Shown: positions 4,254 through 14,120, counted from the first letter of the stretch. The stretch is DNA of 45,090 nt from Myxococcales bacterium (GCA_016794525.1 JAEUJY010000077.1:1-45090); one strand, 5' to 3'. Program-made: numbers and translations. Notes: generated by a model not told the origin, from the sequence alone.

Positions 4254-4847
4254 CTACTTCTTCATCACGAGCACCGTCAGCACGCCCTGCAGCTGCGGCG
4301 CGGTGGCGCTCGAGACGTTGGCGGCGGTGGCGTTCGGGTCGACGGCGATGGCCTTGACCTCGACGGTGTGGTTGCCGGGCGTCAGGTTGTACGAGCGGGC
4401 CATCGACCAGTTGGCGATCATCTGGCCGACCGCCGCCGAGTTGGCGGCGACCACCCGGCGCACGCCGCCCTGGTTGGACGCGATGCCGTCGACGAAGATC
4501 GCGATGTCGACGGCCGAGTAGGCGGTGCCGGCGGCGGTGCACTGGATGCCGCCGTTGGTGCTGACGTGGACCGCGGCGTCGTCGGGCACGGTGATCACCT
4601 GCTGCAGGCCGGGGATCAGCACGTAGCTGGTGATCGCCGACGTCACCGTGAGCTGGCCGGTGCCGTAGATCTCGTAGAGGTTCTGGCCGGTGGTGCCGGC
4701 GGGGCCCGCCGGCCCGGTCGCGCCGATGTTGCCGGTGGCGCCGGTCTGGCCCGGGGGACCCTCGGGGCCGGGCTCGCCGTCGAGACCCGCCGGCCCCGAG
4801 CAAGCGACCGCGAGCAGGAGCGTACCGATCGGCCAGAGCGTGCGCAT
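4254..4847 (-). CDS. Collagen-like triple-helix repeat lipoprotein with a C-terminal globular (BclA/C1q-like) domain
   Basis: Start MRTLWPIGTLLLAVACS (lipobox) at 4845..4847. Thirteen consecutive G-X-Y triplets (GPAGLDGEPGPEGPPGQTGATGNIGATGPAGPAGTTGQN) are followed by a roughly 140-aa beta-rich domain. Convergent with the SBP gene, with stop codons 6 bp apart. Confidence 0.7.
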   Translation of the reverse strand: MRTLWPIGTLLLAVACSGPAGLDGEPGPEGPPGQTGATGNIGATGPAGPAGTTGQNLYEIYGTGQLTVTSAITSYVLIPGLQQVITVPDDAAVHVSTNGGIQCTAAGTAYSAVDIAIFVDGIASNQGGVRRVVAANSAAVGQMIANWSMARSYNLTPGNHTVEVKAIAVDPNATAANVSSATAPQLQGVLTVLVMKK

Positions 4848-4893
4848 CGCGCCGACGCTATCAGAGCGCTCGCCGGCTGTGTCAGCATGCGGC

Positions 4894-6000
4894 ATGCGTC
4901 GCTTCGCCGTCGTCGCTCTCGCCGCGCTCGCGTGCTCGAAGTCCTCGGCCCCGCCGCCGGCGGCGGCCCCGCCGCCGGCCACGCCGCCGACCCCGGTCCC
5001 CGCCGCGCCGGCGAGCTGCCTGCGCGACGTCGGCCAGGTCCAGGCCGCGCGCGGCGCGCCGAGCCAGCCGATGCGGCCGACCCACACCTTCTCGATCGTC
5101 GCGCGCGATCCGGTCACCGGCGATCTCGGCGTCGCGGTGCAGTCGCACTGGTTCGCGGTGGGTGCGCTCGTGACCTGGGCCGAGCCCGGCGTCGGCGCGA
5201 TCGCGACGCAGTCGTTCGCCGAGCCGGCCTACGGGCGCAAGGGCCTCGAGCGGATGCGCGCCGGCGCCAGCGCCCCCGACGCGCTGGCCGCGATCCTGGC
5301 CGAGGACGCCAAGCGCGACGTGCGGCAGGTGGCGTTCGTCGACGGCAAGGGCCAGGTCGCGGCCCACACCGGCGCCGCGAACATCGCGTTCGCCGGGCAC
5401 CACACCGGCGCCGGCTACTCGGTGCAGGCCAACATGATGGCCAACGATCGCGTCGTGCCGGCGATGCAGGCCGCCTACGAGGGCGCCACCGGGGACCTCG
5501 CCGAGCGCCTGCTGGCCACGCTGGCGGCGGCGCAGGCGGCGGGCGGCGACGTCCGCGGCTGCCAGTCGGCGGCCATGCTGATCGTCAAGGGCACGCCCTC
5601 GGCCGAGCCGTCCCACGACACGCTCGTCGACCTGCGCGTCGACGACGCCGCCGATCCGATCGGCGAGCTGGGCCGGCTGCTCAAGCTGCAGCGGGTCTAC
5701 GATCACATGAACGCTGGCGACGCCGCGGTCGAGCGCGGCGACGTCCCCGGCGCCAAGCAGCACTACGGCGCCGCGGCGGCCGCCGCCCCCGACCTGACCG
5801 AGGTCCGCTACTGGAGCGCGGTCGCGCTGGCCTCGGCCGGCGAGCTCGACGCCGCGCTGCCAATGTTCACCAAGATCTTCGCCGAGGACAGCCGGTGGAT
5901 CGAGCTGACCCGCCGCATCCAGCCGGCGGTGGTGCCCGCCACCCCCGAGGGCGACGCGGTGATCCAGAAGATCCTGACCGCCGCGCCGCCGCCGCGCTGA
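4894..6000 (+). CDS. DUF1028 family (Ntn-hydrolase-like) lipoprotein with a C-terminal helical extension
   Basis: Start MRRFAVVALAALACS. The mature part contains THTFSIVARDPVTGDLGVAVQS, matching the TFSI-ARD N-terminal nucleophile signature I associate with DUF1028. Divergent from the collagen-like gene with a 46-bp gap. Confidence 0.7.
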   Translation: MRRFAVVALAALACSKSSAPPPAAAPPPATPPTPVPAAPASCLRDVGQVQAARGAPSQPMRPTHTFSIVARDPVTGDLGVAVQSHWFAVGALVTWAEPGVGAIATQSFAEPAYGRKGLERMRAGASAPDALAAILAEDAKRDVRQVAFVDGKGQVAAHTGAANIAFAGHHTGAGYSVQANMMANDRVVPAMQAAYEGATGDLAERLLATLAAAQAAGGDVRGCQSAAMLIVKGTPSAEPSHDTLVDLRVDDAADPIGELGRLLKLQRVYDHMNAGDAAVERGDVPGAKQHYGAAAAAAPDLTEVRYWSAVALASAGELDAALPMFTKIFAEDSRWIELTRRIQPAVVPATPEGDAVIQKILTAAPPPR

Positions 6001-6030
6001 TCACGCCGGCGGGGTGATACGCTCACGGCG

Positions 6031-6621
6031 ATGGATCAGGATCGCGAGCTGCTCGAGCGGTGGCGCGCAGGCGACCAGGCCGCCGGCCGCGATCTGTTCG
6101 CGCGCTACTTCGATCCGCTGTTCCGGTTCTTCGCCAACAAGTGCAACGAGCCCGACGAGCTGGTCCAGGCGACGTTCTTCGCGCTGGTGAAGGCCCGCGA
6201 TCAGTTCGCCGGCCGCTCGAGCTTCCGCACCTACCTGTTCACGATCGCGCGCAACGAGCTGTACCGCTGGCTGCGCACGTTCAAGCGCGAGCGCGGCTTC
6301 GACCCCGAGCTGTCGTCGATCGCCGAGGTCGCGACCACCGCCGGCTCGCGGCTGGCCCGCAACGAGGAGCACCGCCGGCTGTGCGCCGCGCTGCGCACGC
6401 TGCCGGTCGAGTCGCAGACCCTGCTCGAGCTGCACTACTGGGAGGGCCTCGACGCCACCGCGCTGGCCGAGGTCTTCGACGCCCAGGTCGCCACCATCCG
6501 CCAGCGCCTCTCGCGCGCCCGCCTCGCCCTCAAGGACGCCCTGGCCGCCAGCGCCGGCGCCCCGCTGCCCCTGGCCACGGTCGAGGACATGGACACCTGG
6601 GCGAAGTCGCTGGCGGGATAG
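6031..6621 (+). CDS. ECF (sigma-70 family group IV) RNA polymerase sigma factor
   Basis: Region 2-like FFALVKARDQFAGRSSFRTYLFTIARNELYRWLR and region 4-like LPVESQTLLELHYWEGLDATALAEVFDAQVATIRQRLSRARLAL. No anti-sigma gene follows it. Confidence 0.85.
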   Translation: MDQDRELLERWRAGDQAAGRDLFARYFDPLFRFFANKCNEPDELVQATFFALVKARDQFAGRSSFRTYLFTIARNELYRWLRTFKRERGFDPELSSIAEVATTAGSRLARNEEHRRLCAALRTLPVESQTLLELHYWEGLDATALAEVFDAQVATIRQRLSRARLALKDALAASAGAPLPLATVEDMDTWAKSLAG

Positions 6622-6643
6622 GGCGCCCGGTGGGCGGGCCACT

Positions 6644-6655
6644 TTTTTCGGTCAC
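6644..6655 (+). promoter_or_regulatory. Conserved motif TTTTTCGGTCAC lying 28 nt upstream of the start codon of lipoprotein paralog A
   Basis: The same 12-mer occurs at 7800..7811 and 8948..8959, each with an identical 28-nt spacing to the ATG of paralogs B and C. A -10-like CTTCAT/CTGTAT/GTGTAT follows at a fixed offset. Confidence 0.45.
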
Positions 6656-6683
6656 AACGCCGACCGACCTTCATCCATTGGGC

Positions 6684-7742
6684 ATGAAGCGAACCGTTGT
6701 GGCACTCCCGCTCGCCCTGGCTCTGGCCGCGTGTGTCGATAGCCCTGGGGTCGGGCAGGACGAGAGCGCGGTCGTAAACGGCGATGGCGAAGCCTGTCCC
6801 AAGCTGGGCTGCAGCTCGAACTCGGCGTACCTGGGACCGACCGAGTTCCACGAGCTGGAGGAGACCGGGACTTACGCGAACGCCGAGGGCCTGTACCTCA
6901 AGGGCTTGATCAAGAACGGCGTGACCTGGCGTCCCGACGTCACCGGCACGGTATTGATCGGCTATCGATGGGTGCTGGTCGGCGGGATGCTGACCCGTCA
7001 GACGCTCAGCGGGGCGAACCTGGTCAACGCAGAGCTGGTGGTCAAGAACGCGGCCGGCACCCTCGAGTACCGGATCCGCATCACCAACGCGTCGCAGAAT
7101 CAGCAGTTCTGGCAGGCGCCGATCACCAGCGTGAACACCTACGAGCTCAAGTGGCGGCAGGTGGTGCCGACCTCGACCGACTTCGTCCCGGTGTGCAAGA
7201 ACCCGCCGAACCCGGAGACCGAGGACGGCCCCATCCAGAACACGATCGAGTCGATCCTGTTCACGGGCGATCGCTACGACACCGACACGCTGACGGTCAC
7301 CGCGTCGACGCCGGCCGAGGCGACGACCTGGTTCAACATCGGCTGCGCTGGGACGGTGCTCGCGAAGCTCGCGCTCAACCGGCACACCGACGCGACCAAG
7401 TCGGCCCAGGTCACCACCACTCGCGCCCAGCGCCAGGCGATGCTGAAGATGTACACGTCGGACGTGTGTGGCACGGGCGACGCGCTCACGGTCAGCGGCA
7501 CGCCGCTGCGCTGGTGGAGCGCCACCGGCCTCACCAGCAAGGTCATCCCGACGACCTCCAAGGAGGCGCTGTGGACCCAAAACGGCGCCCTCTGCCTCGA
7601 CACGCATCGGCTCGACGGCACCGCGGACGACATGACCAAGCAGATCGAGGACGCCTGCAAGCGAGCCAACCGGCCGGTCCCGCCACCCTGCGTCGATGTC
7701 TCGAGCCCCTGGGACTTCCGGACCGAGAGCCAGGCTCAATGA
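6684..7742 (+). CDS. Secreted lipoprotein, paralog A of a tandem triplicated Cys-rich family
   Basis: Start MKRTVVALPLALALAAC. Blocks GDGEACPKLGCSSNSAYLGPTEFHELEETGTY, VCKNPPN, FNIGCAGTVLAKLALNRHT, YTSDVC, GALCLDTHRL and ANRPVPPPC are shared with paralogs B and C. Confidence 0.8.
   Translation: MKRTVVALPLALALAACVDSPGVGQDESAVVNGDGEACPKLGCSSNSAYLGPTEFHELEETGTYANAEGLYLKGLIKNGVTWRPDVTGTVLIGYRWVLVGGMLTRQTLSGANLVNAELVVKNAAGTLEYRIRITNASQNQQFWQAPITSVNTYELKWRQVVPTSTDFVPVCKNPPNPETEDGPIQNTIESILFTGDRYDTDTLTVTASTPAEATTWFNIGCAGTVLAKLALNRHTDATKSAQVTTTRAQRQAMLKMYTSDVCGTGDALTVSGTPLRWWSATGLTSKVIPTTSKEALWTQNGALCLDTHRLDGTADDMTKQIEDACKRANRPVPPPCVDVSSPWDFRTESQAQ
7259..7560. repeat. Roughly 300-bp direct repeat, about 88-90% nt identity, between paralog A (about 7259..7560) and paralog B (about 8404..8690)
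   Basis: The DNA aligns directly across the GDRYDTDTLTVTASTPAEATTWFNIGCAGTVLAKLALNRHTDATKSAQVTTTR region. This region is identical at the protein level in A and B but diverged in C. Confidence 0.6.
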
Positions 7743-7799
7743 GCTAACGATCTCAGGCCGTTACGTCGCCGGGTCGCCCAGATGGGGTGACCCGGCGCG

Positions 7800-7811
7800 T
7801 TTTTCGGTCAC
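7800..7811 (+). promoter_or_regulatory. Second copy of TTTTTCGGTCAC, 28 nt upstream of the ATG of paralog B
   Basis: Direct sequence comparison. It is flanked upstream by GGTGACC, which forms an inverted repeat with GGTCAC. Confidence 0.45.
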
Positions 7812-7839
7812 GGCGCGCGTCTTCCTGTATCTACGGGGC

Positions 7840-8889
7840 ATGACGCGACACATCATGGCGCTGGCGGCGGCGCTGGCGGCGGGCTGAACTGGCGAACTGG
7901 CGACCGGAAGCGGCGAGAGCCTGGTCATCAACGGTGATGGCGAGGCCTGCCCGAAGCTCGGCTGCAGCTCCAACTCGGCGTACCTGGGCCCGACCGAGTT
8001 CCACGAGCTCGAGGAGACCGGCACGTACCCCAACGCCGAAGGCCTGTACCTCAAGGGCCTGGTCAAGAACGGCTTGACCTATCGCCCCAACGTCACGGGG
8101 ACGGAGTTGACCGCCTCGCGCTGGGCGTTGGTCGGTGGCTTCTGGATCTACCAGACACTCAGCGGGGCGAACCTGGTCAACTCCGAGCTGGTGGTCAAGA
8201 ACGCCACCGGCTCGCTCGAGTACCGCATCCGCATCGCGAACGCGTCGACGATCCAGAAGTTCTGGCAGGCCCCGATCACCACGGTGAACACCTACGAGCT
8301 CCAGTGGCGCCTGGCCACCTCCACCTACTACACCCCGGTGTGCAAGAACCCGCCGAACCGCCTGGATGACACCGGCAACTGGAACAACATCCTCGAGGCG
8401 ATCCTCTTCACCGGCGATCGCTACGACACCGACACCCTGACAGTCACCGCGTCGACGCCGGCGGAGGCGACGACCTGGTTCAACATCGGCTGCGCCGGGA
8501 CGGTCCTGGCGAAGCTCGCCCTCAACCGGCACACCGACGCGACGAAGTCGGCGCAGGTCACCACCACGCGGGACCAGCGGCAGGCGATGCTGAAGATGTA
8601 CACGTCGGACGTGTGCAACAGCGGCGACGCGTTGACCGTGACCGGCACGCCGTTGCGCTGGTGGAGCGCCACCGGCCTCACCAGCAAGGCGATCGCGGTC
8701 TACTCCAACGAGGCGCGGTGGACCGCCGATGGCGCGCTGTGTCTGGACACGCACCGGCTCGATGGGACCCCGGATGACAGGACCGCGCAGATCGCGGACG
8801 CCTGCCAGCGCGCCAACCGACCGGTGCCCCCGCCCTGTGCCGACGTCACGACCAGCTGGGACTTCCGCACCGAGAGCCAGGCGCACTAA
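7840..8889 (+). pseudogene. Lipoprotein paralog B with an in-frame TGA (7885..7887) exactly at the lipobox Cys codon
   Basis: A single reading frame gives MTRHIMALAAALAAG, then TGA, then TGELATGSGESLVINGDGEACPKLGCSSNS and the rest through 8889. Paralog C has Cys at the same position (LAAVGC). Downstream the protein is about 90% identical to A. Confidence 0.6.
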
Positions 8890-8947
8890 CGACACGTTTT
8901 CAGATGGTTGGACGCGGGGGCACCGGAAAAGGGTGACCCCGGTGTGC

Positions 8948-8959
8948 TTTTTCGGTCAC
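8948..8959 (+). promoter_or_regulatory. Third copy of TTTTTCGGTCAC, 28 nt upstream of the ATG of paralog C
   Basis: Direct sequence comparison. It is preceded by GGGTGACCCCGG, the same arrangement as upstream of B. Confidence 0.45.
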
Positions 8960-8987
8960 AGGGGACCGCCGCGTGTATCAACCCGGC

Positions 8988-10070
8988 ATGACCCGACACA
9001 TCCTGGCACTCGCGACGGCGCTGGCGGCGGTGGGCTGTACGGACGACCTGGTGACCGGAAGCGACGAGAGCCCGGTCATCAATGGAGATGGCGAGGCCTG
9101 CCCCAAGCTCGGGTGCAGCTCGAACTCGGCGTACCTGGGCCCGACCGAGTTCCACGAGCTCGAGGAGACCGGCACCTACGCCAACGCCGAGGGCTTCCGG
9201 ATCACCAGCTTCACCAAGACGGTGGGCGGCGTGACCACGACCTACCGCCCCGACGTCACCGGGACGACGCTGGTGGGCAAGCGGTACAGCACCTTGATCC
9301 ACGGCTGGTACACCGCGCTCAGCGGCCCCGACCTGGTCGGCGCGGTGTTCAACGTCGACCGCACCGTCCGCGGTGTCGTCACGGCGAGGTACCAGATCGG
9401 GATCACCGCGGCGAGCACCGCGCAGGAGTACTGGCAGCCGCCGGCCGGCCTGCTGAACACCTACGAGCTGCAGTGGCGCATGATCTACCCGAGCGCCACC
9501 CACCTCGTGCCGGTCTGCAACAACCCACCCAACCGTCTCGATGGCGAGGGGACGTGGTGGCGCAAGACCACCGAGGCGGTACTGTTCACGGGCGATCGCT
9601 ACGACACCGAGTCGCTGACCGTGACCGCCGGCGATCCAGCGTCGTCGGGTGACTGGTTCAACATCGGCTGCTCGGGCACCGTGCTGGCCAAGCTCGCGCT
9701 CAACCGCCACACCTTCGCCACCCAGTCGTCCACGGCGCCGACCACGATCGCGCAACGCCAGGCGATGCTCAAGATGTACGCCTCGGACGTGTGTAACACC
9801 GGCGACGCGCTGACCGTGGTCGGCACGCCGCTGCGCTGGAACAGCACCACCGGCCTGGCCAGCCCCCCGATCGCGGTGAACAGCTACGAGGCCCGGTGGA
9901 CTGCCAGCGGGGCGCTCTGCCTCGACACCCACCGCCTGAACGGCACCCCCGACGACATGGACGCGCAGATCGCCGCCGCGTGCGCCGCCGCGGGCAAGGC
10001 GGTGCCGCCGCCGTGCGCGGGCGCGTCGACGAGCTACTACCTGCGCACCACCAGCCCCGCGCTGCCCTGA
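8988..10070 (+). CDS. Secreted lipoprotein, paralog C of the tandem family (more diverged)
   Basis: Start MTRHILALATALAAVGC; a GTG at 8973 is an alternative start. All family Cys blocks are retained. Convergent with the kinase gene, whose stop is 7 bp away. Confidence 0.8.
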   Translation: MTRHILALATALAAVGCTDDLVTGSDESPVINGDGEACPKLGCSSNSAYLGPTEFHELEETGTYANAEGFRITSFTKTVGGVTTTYRPDVTGTTLVGKRYSTLIHGWYTALSGPDLVGAVFNVDRTVRGVVTARYQIGITAASTAQEYWQPPAGLLNTYELQWRMIYPSATHLVPVCNNPPNRLDGEGTWWRKTTEAVLFTGDRYDTESLTVTAGDPASSGDWFNIGCSGTVLAKLALNRHTFATQSSTAPTTIAQRQAMLKMYASDVCNTGDALTVVGTPLRWNSTTGLASPPIAVNSYEARWTASGALCLDTHRLNGTPDDMDAQIAAACAAAGKAVPPPCAGASTSYYLRTTSPALP

Positions 10071-10077
10071 CCCGGTG

Positions 10078-12606
<2,529 letters not shown>

Positions 12607-12638: not shown

Positions 12639-14120
12639 GTGGACGAACCCGAGGTCAACTCCGTCGAAGCCGTGCCCAGTCCGATCGAGTGGGTGGGGCT
12701 GGCGCTGGGCGGCGCGCCGTTCGCGGTCAGCCATTCGGTGACCCGCATCAGCACGAGCAACGGCGCGGTGTCGGTGTACTACCGCGACTGGGTGGCGCTC
12801 GGCTGTGGCGTCGCGGCGGCGGTGATCGGAGTGCACGCGTTGATCCGGCTGCGCTCGACGGCGCCGGCGCGGCGGACGCTGCGCGTGCTGGTGGCGCTGG
12901 CGCTGCTGGTGGCGGGCGTCGTGCAGGTGCTGCGCGGCGTCGGGACCATCGACGGTCCGAAGGCGGAGGCGCCGGCGATCACGACCGGCCCCGCGACCCC
13001 GCCGCCCGCGGCGGTCGACCCGGCGGTGGCGTGCGACGGCGGCGACAGCGAGGCGTGCAACCGCGCCGGCATGGCGGCGATCGCCGCCGAGCAGTGGACG
13101 ATCGCGCGCCAGCGCTTCGAGACCGGCTGCGGGCGCAAACACGGCGAGAGCTGCAAGAACCTCGGCGTCATGTACGACCACGGCGACGGCGTCGAGCGCA
13201 ACCAGGTCAAGGCGGTCGGCTACTACGGCCAGGCCTGCGACGCCGGCAACGCGGTCGGCTGCTTCAACCTCGGCATGGCCCGCTACCAGGGCGCCGGCGT
13301 CGATCGCGACGTGCCCGGCGCGGCCGGCATGTTCAAGCGCGCGTGCGAGGCCGACAGCGCGGCGGCGTGCAACCAGCTGGCGATCATGCTGGGCGACGGC
13401 GTCGGCGTGCGCGAGGACGACGCGGCGGCGTTCGCGCTGTTCACCAAGGCGTGCGACGCCAAGCTGGCGGTCGCGTGCCGCAACGCCGGGCTCAAGCTCG
13501 ACGACGGCGACGGCGTGGCCAAGGATCCGGCCAAGGCGGTGGCGCGGTTCGTCGAGGCGTGCGACGGCGGCGACGGCGCCGGCTGCTCCGACGCCGGCGC
13601 GCGCTACCAGGCCGGCCGCGGCGTGACCGCCGATCCCGCGCAGGCCCGCACGTACTACGAGCGCGCGTGCCGCCTGAACTACGGCGACGGCTGCAACCGG
13701 CTGGGCCGCCTCGCCGAGGACGGCGTCGGCGAGCCCAAGGATCTCGCCAAGGCCGCCGCGCTGTACGAGCAGGGCTGCGCGCTGGGCGCCGGCTACGGCT
13801 GCTCGAACCTGGCGTTCCTCAAGGGCGGCATCACCAAGCAGCTGCCGCTGTACCAGCGCGCGTGCGAGCTGGGCGCCGCCGGCGTCTGCGTCGACCTCGG
13901 CATGGAGCTGTACACCGGCAAGCACCTGAAGAAGGACGTCGCGGCGGCGCTGCCGCTGTTCGAGCGCGGCTGCGCGCTCGGCGACGAGGTCGGGTGCCGC
14001 AACGCCGGCATCCAGTACTTCCGCGGCGAGGGCACCAAGGCCGATCGCGTGAAGTCGCACGACCTGCTGGTGCGGGCGTGTCAGCTCGGCGACGCCGCGT
14101 CGTGCAAGGAGCTCGAGTAG
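12639..14120 (+). CDS. Sel1-like repeat (SLR) protein with N-terminal TM helices
   Basis: About ten tandem units of roughly 36 aa, of the form C..G....C..LG..Y..G.GV..D...A...Y..AC (for example CKNLGVMYDHGDGVERNQVKAVGYYGQAC). This is the typical Sel1/HcpA-type repeat pattern. Confidence 0.8.
   Translation: MDEPEVNSVEAVPSPIEWVGLALGGAPFAVSHSVTRISTSNGAVSVYYRDWVALGCGVAAAVIGVHALIRLRSTAPARRTLRVLVALALLVAGVVQVLRGVGTIDGPKAEAPAITTGPATPPPAAVDPAVACDGGDSEACNRAGMAAIAAEQWTIARQRFETGCGRKHGESCKNLGVMYDHGDGVERNQVKAVGYYGQACDAGNAVGCFNLGMARYQGAGVDRDVPGAAGMFKRACEADSAAACNQLAIMLGDGVGVREDDAAAFALFTKACDAKLAVACRNAGLKLDDGDGVAKDPAKAVARFVEACDGGDGAGCSDAGARYQAGRGVTADPAQARTYYERACRLNYGDGCNRLGRLAEDGVGEPKDLAKAAALYEQGCALGAGYGCSNLAFLKGGITKQLPLYQRACELGAAGVCVDLGMELYTGKHLKKDVAAALPLFERGCALGDEVGCRNAGIQYFRGEGTKADRVKSHDLLVRACQLGDAASCKELE

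Follow-up and report, generated by a model that had tools for sequence, protein, structure and literature searches.

A 45,090-nucleotide stretch of DNA from a Myxococcales bacterium (GCA_016794525.1, JAEUJY010000077.1:1-45090; the whole stretch is referred to here as the window) carries a gene for an extracytoplasmic function (ECF) sigma factor, three tandem genes of the Pfam ADYC family of cysteine-rich lipoproteins (ADYC-A, ADYC-B and ADYC-C) and, on the opposite strand, a gene for a Hanks-type Ser/Thr kinase. Comparison with related genomes identifies this region as one copy of a sigma/ADYC/kinase module, with one to four ADYC genes, that belongs to the Kofleriaceae and Haliangiales (Myxococcota). 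It is likely that within this module the kinase activates the sigma factor, which would in turn drive the promoters of the ADYC genes. An earlier note on this stretch had regarded the sigma factor as an orphan heading a self-contained regulon; its individual claims are taken up below where the evidence bears on them.

Conservation of the Sigma/ADYC/Kinase Module

A scan of one genome per species recovered 62 ADYC loci, which were searched with the proteins of the window and a sigma-factor profile, and synteny was counted over the 46 non-redundant ADYC clusters that have enough flanking sequence on both sides. A sigma gene lies directly upstream on the same strand in 36 of the 46 clusters, a convergent downstream kinase with a homologous C-terminal domain is present in 38, and both genes occur together in 33. 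Most of the other clusters hold part of the set in a rearranged form, while in a few (L047, L049) no sigma or kinase gene lies within 10 kb. The synteny of the module persists down to 28% ADYC identity, and three to five modules may be found in single genomes. The loci closest to the window share a fixed order, namely a collagen-like gene, a DUF1028 gene, the sigma gene, the ADYC genes and the kinase gene on the opposite strand, with one, two or four ADYC copies. Since a kinase partner is conserved with the sigma and ADYC genes across these clusters, the description of the sigma factor as an orphan in a self-contained regulon no longer holds.

The kinase (842 aa, 10078–12606, minus strand; Pfam Pkinase, 114 bits) has its catalytic domain at approximately residues 65–255 or beyond, with the VALK, HRDFKPDN, DFG and APE motifs kept. 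This domain is followed by one hydrophobic segment (GMIGAGVITAGAITVALVG) and then by a 510-aa C-terminal domain with six Cys, for which no Pfam match was found even at E = 1. The arrangement points to a single-pass membrane protein.

A Predicted ECF-Type Promoter in Front of the ADYC Genes

The 12-mer TTTTTCGGTCAC occurs exactly at 6644–6655, 7800–7811 and 8948–8959 (plus strand) and nowhere else in the 45 kb; no further matches appear at two or fewer mismatches (0.48 expected), and 0 of 100 shuffled sequences reach three copies. Each copy ends 28 nt 5' of a lipoprotein ATG (6684, 7840, and 8988), just as the earlier note had reported. When the three upstream regions are aligned the 12-mer is the sole long invariant block, followed on its 3' side by a short conserved T..ATC and then by GGCATGA at the start codon; the intergenic sequence flanking it has diverged between the copies while the motif has remained exact. 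Over 68 loci (~1.1 Mb), the 11-mer TTTTCGGTCAC is found only 5' of the ADYC genes of orthologous loci.

Diverged loci have a two-part element in common upstream of their ADYC genes, the remaining intergenic sequence being different. Alignment of the ADYC upstream regions by means of an iteratively refined two-block position-weight matrix gave, for 41 non-redundant sites, a consensus composed of an A/T-rich patch, cgGTcAC[ag], N16 and CTCTA[C/T]C. The −35 core across these sites is G-[T/G]-[C/A]-A-C (G 100%, A 98%, C 100%), the −10 block shows T in 85%, C in 100%, T in 88%, A in 93%, and C in 93%, and the A/T content of the patch reaches 76% against a background of 29%. At a threshold of 15 bits or more the matrix has 75 matches in 1.0 Mb counting both strands (shuffled sequences have 11–23), and about 49 of the 75 lie directly 5' of ADYC genes. 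The presence of the same two-part motif before ADYC genes in dozens of diverged loci sustains the idea of a promoter shared by a multiplied target family, and the 12-mer is largely accounted for as part of a predicted ECF-type promoter before each lipoprotein gene.

The three promoters of the window were delimited by the motif scan and the family alignment. The ADYC-A promoter (6644–6680, plus strand) comprises a T-run or A+T patch at 6643–6648, a −35 element CGGTCACA at 6649–6656, a 16-nt spacer and a −10 element ATCCATTG at 6673–6680. The ADYC-B promoter (7800–7836, plus strand) has its −35 element CGGTCACG at 7805–7812 and, after a spacer of the same length (16 nt), its −10 element ATCTACGG at 7829–7836. 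The third promoter lies in a region (8912–8984, plus strand) that also includes a weaker hairpin (8912–8945) and a T-run (8948–8952), and places CGGTCACA at 8953–8960 and, again across 16 nt, ATCAACCC at 8977–8984 in front of ADYC-C. The −10 elements of A, B and C read ATCCATT, ATCTACG and ATCAACC, respectively, compared with the family consensus CTCTA[CT]C. The hexamers CTTCAT, CTGTAT and GTGTAT, formerly proposed as −10-like sequences, do stand at a constant offset from the 12-mer and partly coincide with the −10 blocks given here, but the conserved element is located 3–4 nt further downstream. No sigma-70-type promoter was found in a scan of positions 5900–10300. A metagenome scan with TTTTCGGTCAC-N16-YATC returned unrelated chance matches, none of which was linked to an ADYC gene among the matches listed.

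Promoters of the RpoE/AlgU type conform to GGAAC-N16/17-TCnnA. The element described here resembles them in its AAC/CAC-type −35, its 16-nt spacer and its TCTA-type −10. It differs in that the −35 of the window subfamily is GTCAC instead of GGAAC, in that the start codon abuts the promoter in half of the cases, and in that an RseA-like anti-sigma factor is lacking.

The motif is not confined to ADYC genes. Eleven non-ADYC matrix matches were examined, 10 of which precede genes whose products, a trypsin-like protease among them, start with a signal peptide and have a Cys of the lipobox type, and one of which (L020) precedes a gene without a signal peptide; in five non-ADYC matches the ATG is located 6–8 nt 3' of the −10. 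As the motif also stands before lipoprotein genes of other kinds, the regulons appear to be made up of exported lipoproteins. In four modules the motif is found once more, 100–230 nt upstream of the sigma gene (L037 9151, L044 8923, L040 9144, and L018 9053), which suggests autoregulation; the sigma gene of the window, unlike these, has no upstream copy. Individual sites before non-ADYC lipoprotein genes in the vicinity of the modules were recorded in L010 (9866, plus strand, and 5519, minus strand), L012 (13572, plus), L054 (9340, minus) and L067 (1142, minus), and further ones in L027 (9851, minus), L061 (13912, plus) and L035 (7530, plus).

The sequence of the −35 element varies together with that of the sigma factor encoded next to it. 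The sigma-4.2 helix of the window sigma factor is IRQRLSRAR; across the family, RLSRAR is paired only with GT[CT]AC, RTRLHRAR with G[GA][AC]AC and RVRLLRAR with GTAAC, a pattern suggestive of −35 variants that track the recognition helix of the adjacent sigma factor.

Probable Leaderless Transcripts and Terminator-Like Hairpins

None of A, B and C has a Shine-Dalgarno sequence, and in all three the ATG lies 3 nt 3' of the −10 block. For the family as a whole, the −10 block and the start codon are separated by distances with a bimodal distribution. Where the start falls no more than 10 nt after the −10 block, a Shine-Dalgarno sequence occurs in 0 of 21 promoters, about a dozen of which show a clean ATG at 3–7 nt followed by a signal peptide; longer leaders (13–58 nt) have GGAG-like sites in 11 of 17 cases. 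Because close starts lack a Shine-Dalgarno sequence and long leaders usually have one, the ADYC mRNAs of the window are probably leaderless or nearly so, which strengthens the proposal of leaderless transcripts made in the earlier note, with the start site itself predicted from sequence.

Between A and B, positions 7767–7797 can form a 13-bp hairpin with 11 G-C pairs (arms CGCCGGGTCGCCC/GGGGTGACCCGGCG), followed by CG and by TTTTT (7800–7804), a T-run that is at the same time the beginning of the 12-mer. The RNA fold has an energy of −41.6 kcal/mol (z = −4.5), a value that none of 200 shuffled sequences equals, and the element as a whole (7767–7804, plus strand; terminator scan and RNA fold) has the features of an intrinsic (rho-independent) terminator 3' of ADYC-A. 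Inverted repeats noticed previously before B and C had been linked to a shared promoter or operator. They are indeed present, more weakly at C, but the repeat at 7767–7797 is better read as a terminator hairpin, and the pairing formerly given as GGTGACC...GGTCAC is superseded before B by the stronger repeat CGCCGGGTCGCCC/GGGGTGACCCGGCG. The T-run would thus serve both as terminator tail for the gene upstream and as A/T patch for the promoter that follows. Where a module has only one ADYC gene, the A/T patch is present and the hairpin absent, which indicates that the promoter role is the general one. It was also observed that the hairpin arms GGGTCACC/GGTGACCC before B and C (7767–7797 and 8912–8945; also L001 and L004) repeat the GGTCAC of the −35 element, so that one heptamer is present in the region in two direct copies and one inverted copy.

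The Sigma Factor and Its Relation to Kinase-Associated ECF Systems

The proteins of the window were scanned against Pfam and NCBIfam. The product of 6031–6621 (196 aa, plus strand) matches Sigma70_r2, Sigma70_r4_2, and Sigma70_ECF of Pfam as well as TIGR02937 (91.8 bits; cut-off 42.9), in agreement with the ECF assignment of the earlier note, and has the characteristics of an ECF (group 4) sigma factor; its closest solved relatives are AlgU and E. coli sigma-E (RpoE). Region sigma-2.2 reads E-P-D-E-L-V-Q-A-T-F and retains an acidic motif. With the register fixed by alignment to E. coli RpoE and conservation counted over 54 homologs, this region corresponds to E40-P-D42-E43-L-V-Q-A47, positions 40, 42, and 43 being D/E in 93, 89, and 100% of the sequences, respectively, and the last Glu of DxxDxxQE is lost (acidic in 6% only). 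The linker region connecting sigma-2 with sigma-4, F-D-P-E-L-S-S-I-A-E-V-A-T-T-A-G-S, is strongly conserved; in the homolog alignment Ser/Thr occupies position 95 in 87%, 96 in 98%, 102 in 91%, 103 in 96%, and 106 in 74%. The Pfam scan detected no anti-sigma domain among the genes neighboring the sigma gene.

ECF groups that are associated with kinases and lack an anti-sigma factor constitute an established category (PMC7826278). In EcfP/PknT and EcfK/PknS phosphorylation has been shown to be direct, with linker sites among those of EcfK (PMC7826278, PMC8999054, PMC13147305), and the activity of EcfK requires the linker phosphosite (PMC13147305). Both sigma factors belong to ECF43, which has no acidic DxxD in sigma-2.2, the charge being supplied by a phospho-Thr (PMC8999054, PMC13147305); the region contains instead uncharged residues and a conserved Thr, in the form QTTA or STTA (PMC13147305, PMC8999054). 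Like the ECF43 systems (EcfP/PknT of Vibrio parahaemolyticus and EcfK/PknS of Xanthomonas citri), the system of the window combines the lack of an anti-sigma factor with an adjoining, predicted single-pass membrane Ser/Thr kinase, and like EcfK it has Ser/Thr residues in the linker, which are nearly invariant here. Unlike ECF43, the window sigma factor has [ED]-x-D-[ED] in common with its 53 homologs, the final Glu being the sole part of DxxDxxQE that is missing, and the predicted targets are ADYC lipoproteins as opposed to polymyxin resistance or type VI secretion genes. The family thus shares with ECF43 the kinase neighbor and the missing anti-sigma factor, departs from it in sigma-2.2, and is classified on these features as a new variant of the kinase-associated ECF systems that falls outside ECF43.

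The remaining kinase-linked groups are described as retaining a DAED-like motif and may operate by a different mechanism (PMC8999054). The present family resembles ECF59, 61, 62, 217, 267, and 283 and subgroups of ECF27/40/210 in its kinase neighbor, the lack of an anti-sigma factor and the DAED-like motif, by the criteria given for these groups (PMC7826278, PMC8999054). The representatives of ECF59, 61, 62, 217, and 283 named in the review come from Planctomycetes or Actinobacteria (PMC7826278, PMC8999054). No ADYC lipoprotein is described as a conserved third gene in any of these other kinase-associated groups of the Casas-Pastor 2021 classification.

The ADYC Lipoproteins

ADYC-A, -B, and -C match the Pfam family ADYC (PF20032) with 97.2, 96.2, and 74.6 bits, respectively (gathering threshold 27), which gives a family to proteins that had been described as belonging to none that could be recognized. 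NCBIfam holds no model matching them, a literature search for "ADYC domain" found no paper, and a search for Kofleriaceae together with sigma factor found nothing. The mature proteins are 62–79% identical, and their description as tandem paralogs is upheld; that of three intact genes is not, as B contains an in-frame TGA. ADYC-A (352 aa, 6684–7742, plus strand) begins with a signal peptide whose lipobox is LAAC (Cys17) and has eight conserved Cys after it, and ADYC-C (360 aa, 8988–10070, plus strand) has the lipobox AVGC, so that both display the hallmarks of lipoproteins. The lipobox Cys is at least 90% conserved among 110 homologs; besides it, eight Cys, likewise conserved to at least 90%, and several polar residues are maintained in the homolog alignment. 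The fold of ADYC-A is predicted with confidence (AlphaFold2 model; pLDDT, predicted local distance difference test, 91.6) and has no relative among PDB structures.

A profile search found 2350 ADYC clusters at 50% identity with E ≤0.001 and 896 with E ≤1e-30; the best 150 profile matches are nearly all 330–380 aa long and match over their full length. The Pfam model covers ~176 residues, whereas the conserved unit here is the whole lipoprotein of 330–380 aa, which further includes, at the N terminus, a CPxxGCxxNS...FHEL segment, as well as a variable beta domain. Homologs of A occur only in Kofleriaceae, Haliangiales, and other Myxococcota metagenome-assembled genomes (MAGs). A and C agree in every position of a 33-residue segment, ACPKLGCSSNSAYLGPTEFHELEETGTYANAEG, in spite of 8 synonymous codon differences (0 non-synonymous), and the corresponding positions in the three genes are 6792–6890, 7945–8043, and 9096–9194; codon comparison places this segment under strong local purifying selection. 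Gene conversion was considered as the cause of the identity between A and C and rejected in view of the 8 synonymous differences. The beta domain is 41–75% identical among the paralogs, with values of 41–45% for C compared with the other two.

Copy B (7840–8889, plus strand) is probably a pseudogene. The in-frame TGA (7885–7887) falls exactly at the lipobox Cys codon, leaving B without the lipoprotein signature; otherwise its reading frame stays open, at 79% identity to A. The ortholog of B in L001 (9954–11002) is instead frameshifted after GDGEA; the differing lesions look like independent decay, or assembly errors. Recoding of the TGA (e.g., as selenocysteine) was rejected, as the L001 ortholog is broken by a frameshift. 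An intact relative of copy B exists (P0010), and another protein, P0011, which comes from the Myxococcales MAG JNK64, matches the last 260 residues of copy B without a single difference. The copy is a mosaic, with a signal peptide and linker that are C-like (74–75% identity, vs. 47–50% to A) and a remainder that is A-like (75–81% identity), which suggests recombination between paralogs. In L001 an extra, distant ADYC copy (7691–8731, 45% identity) is inserted after the sigma gene, ahead of the A ortholog, and has no recognizable promoter motif.

Neighboring Genes

The gene upstream of the sigma gene (4690–6000, plus strand) encodes a DUF1028 protein with tetratricopeptide repeats (TPR) and a lipoprotein-like signal peptide (Pfam DUF1028, 238 bits; synteny in L001–L005 and L014). 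The sigma gene starts 30 nt 3' of its end, and on account of this small gap the two genes are probably co-transcribed. Conservation of the DUF1028 gene extends to the closest relatives but not to the modules at large. Upstream of it, on the opposite strand, a collagen-like protein with Gly-X-Y repeats is encoded (4254–5117, minus strand), and a 493-aa Sel1-repeat protein (12639–14120, plus strand) is divergent from the kinase gene; of these two flanking genes only the collagen-like one was found to recur in related loci (L001–L005). ADYC-C and the kinase gene converge with their stop codons 7 nt apart and no terminator between them (10070–10078), and read-through could occur between the two. 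A tight ADYC/kinase convergence (10–18 nt) is maintained in the closest relatives.

Proposed Mechanism and Alternative Explanations

In the mechanism proposed for the window, the sigma gene would be expressed with the DUF1028 gene and without autoregulation. The kinase would sense an extracytoplasmic signal by means of its 510-aa C-terminal domain and phosphorylate, and so activate, the sigma factor, the likeliest sites being S95, S96, T102, T103, and S106, as suggested by the unusual conservation of the Ser/Thr cluster in the linker. RNA polymerase carrying the sigma factor would then initiate at the ECF-type promoter of each individual ADYC gene, composed in the window of an A/T-rich patch, a −35 GGTCAC, a 16-nt spacer and a −10 (A/C)TC(T)A(C/T)C, and with just 3 nt from the end of the −10 block to the ATG the resulting mRNAs would be leaderless or near-leaderless. 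Every ADYC gene would constitute a separate transcription unit, a hairpin and T-run terminating the preceding unit and the same T-run being reused as the A/T-rich patch of the following promoter. The ADYC proteins would be the output of the system, in the form of exported, disulfide-rich lipoproteins. We infer the phosphorylation, its sites, the exact transcription start and the role of ADYC as output instead of co-sensor.

Several points weigh against this mechanism. The whole case rests on the comparison of sequences, and the topology of the kinase is deduced from a single hydrophobic segment. The site frequencies of the promoter matrix are partly circular, in that the matrix chose the sites (the comparison with shuffles is not), and the covariation between sigma-4.2 and the −35 element is confounded by shared descent. 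Within the window, the −10 of copy A is a poor fit to the family consensus at 16-nt spacing (6.8 bits), the hairpin before C (8912–8945) is weak (z = −1.25), and so is the one after the sigma gene, which has a 5-bp stem (6625–6639; z = −0.2). In addition, the acidic sigma-2.2 motif is retained, and the sigma factor may therefore, unlike EcfP, bind RNA polymerase without phosphorylation, in which case the kinase could act in some other way.

This intact DxxD-type motif is also what lends some weight to the view that the kinase is a mere neighbor or a co-regulated gene, and that the sigma factor, perhaps active by itself, is controlled by an unlinked anti-sigma factor, by transcription of the DUF1028 operon or by proteolysis; kinase-linked groups other than ECF43 may, after all, work differently (PMC8999054). 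Such an arrangement is nevertheless improbable, given that the convergent kinase adjoins the ADYC genes in 38 of 46 clusters over deep divergence, that its sensor domain diverges in step with the rest of the module, that no anti-sigma domain is encoded near the sigma gene, and that a linker which is normally variable contains nearly invariant Ser/Thr residues. It is very improbable that the 12-mer is either a functionless remnant of recent tandem duplication or an operator whose GGTCACC/GGTGACC palindrome binds a dimeric repressor. Although A, B, and C are tandem duplicates and a GGTCACC-N5-GGTGACC palindrome does precede B and C, the motif has stayed exact amid diverged intergenic sequence, and the same element with the same spacing is found both before ADYC genes of only 28–58% identity and in single-ADYC modules; the palindrome, for its part, is missing upstream of A and from the majority of the other loci, and where present it is followed by a T-run in the manner of a terminator.

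A tentative alternative, which is compatible with the promoter assignment and concerns the function of the lipoproteins, is that ADYC is also a signaling component (co-sensor, partner that presents a ligand, or feedback inhibitor) that binds the kinase's extracytoplasmic domain. In the whole family it is ADYC alone that lies between the sigma and kinase genes, the kinase's C-terminal domain and ADYC are alike in being Cys-rich and in their predicted location outside the cytoplasm, and the identity of the 33-residue N-terminal segment in A and C despite 8 synonymous differences denotes strong constraint. Against a co-sensor stand the presence of one to four ADYC copies per kinase, one of them decaying, the existence of ADYC genes with the same promoter and without a sigma or kinase gene within 10 kb (L047, L049), and the use of the same promoter type by unrelated lipoproteins. 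The variable copy number, the stand-alone ADYC genes and the other lipoprotein targets therefore favor ADYC as an output over ADYC as a co-sensor. A stricter version, in which ADYC would be an obligatory third partner that binds the kinase ectodomain and sets, or feeds back on, kinase activity, in parallel channels that have multiplied within genomes, each having its own −35 specificity, is likewise doubtful.

Implications

Experiments on kinase-linked ECF sigma factors have been almost confined to ECF43, where phosphorylation substitutes for a missing acidic patch. A family that keeps the acidic patch and combines it with a nearly invariant Ser/Thr cluster in the linker could reveal a second mode of kinase control over sigma factors. 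The multiplied modules, with −35 variants that appear to track sigma-4.2, represent a natural set of candidate sigma/promoter pairs that do not cross-talk. For the ADYC family the module would provide a first regulatory context, as induced, exported lipoproteins that are often produced from leaderless mRNAs; and if ADYC were in truth an obligatory partner of the kinase, it would define a new three-component sigma/kinase/lipoprotein pathway.

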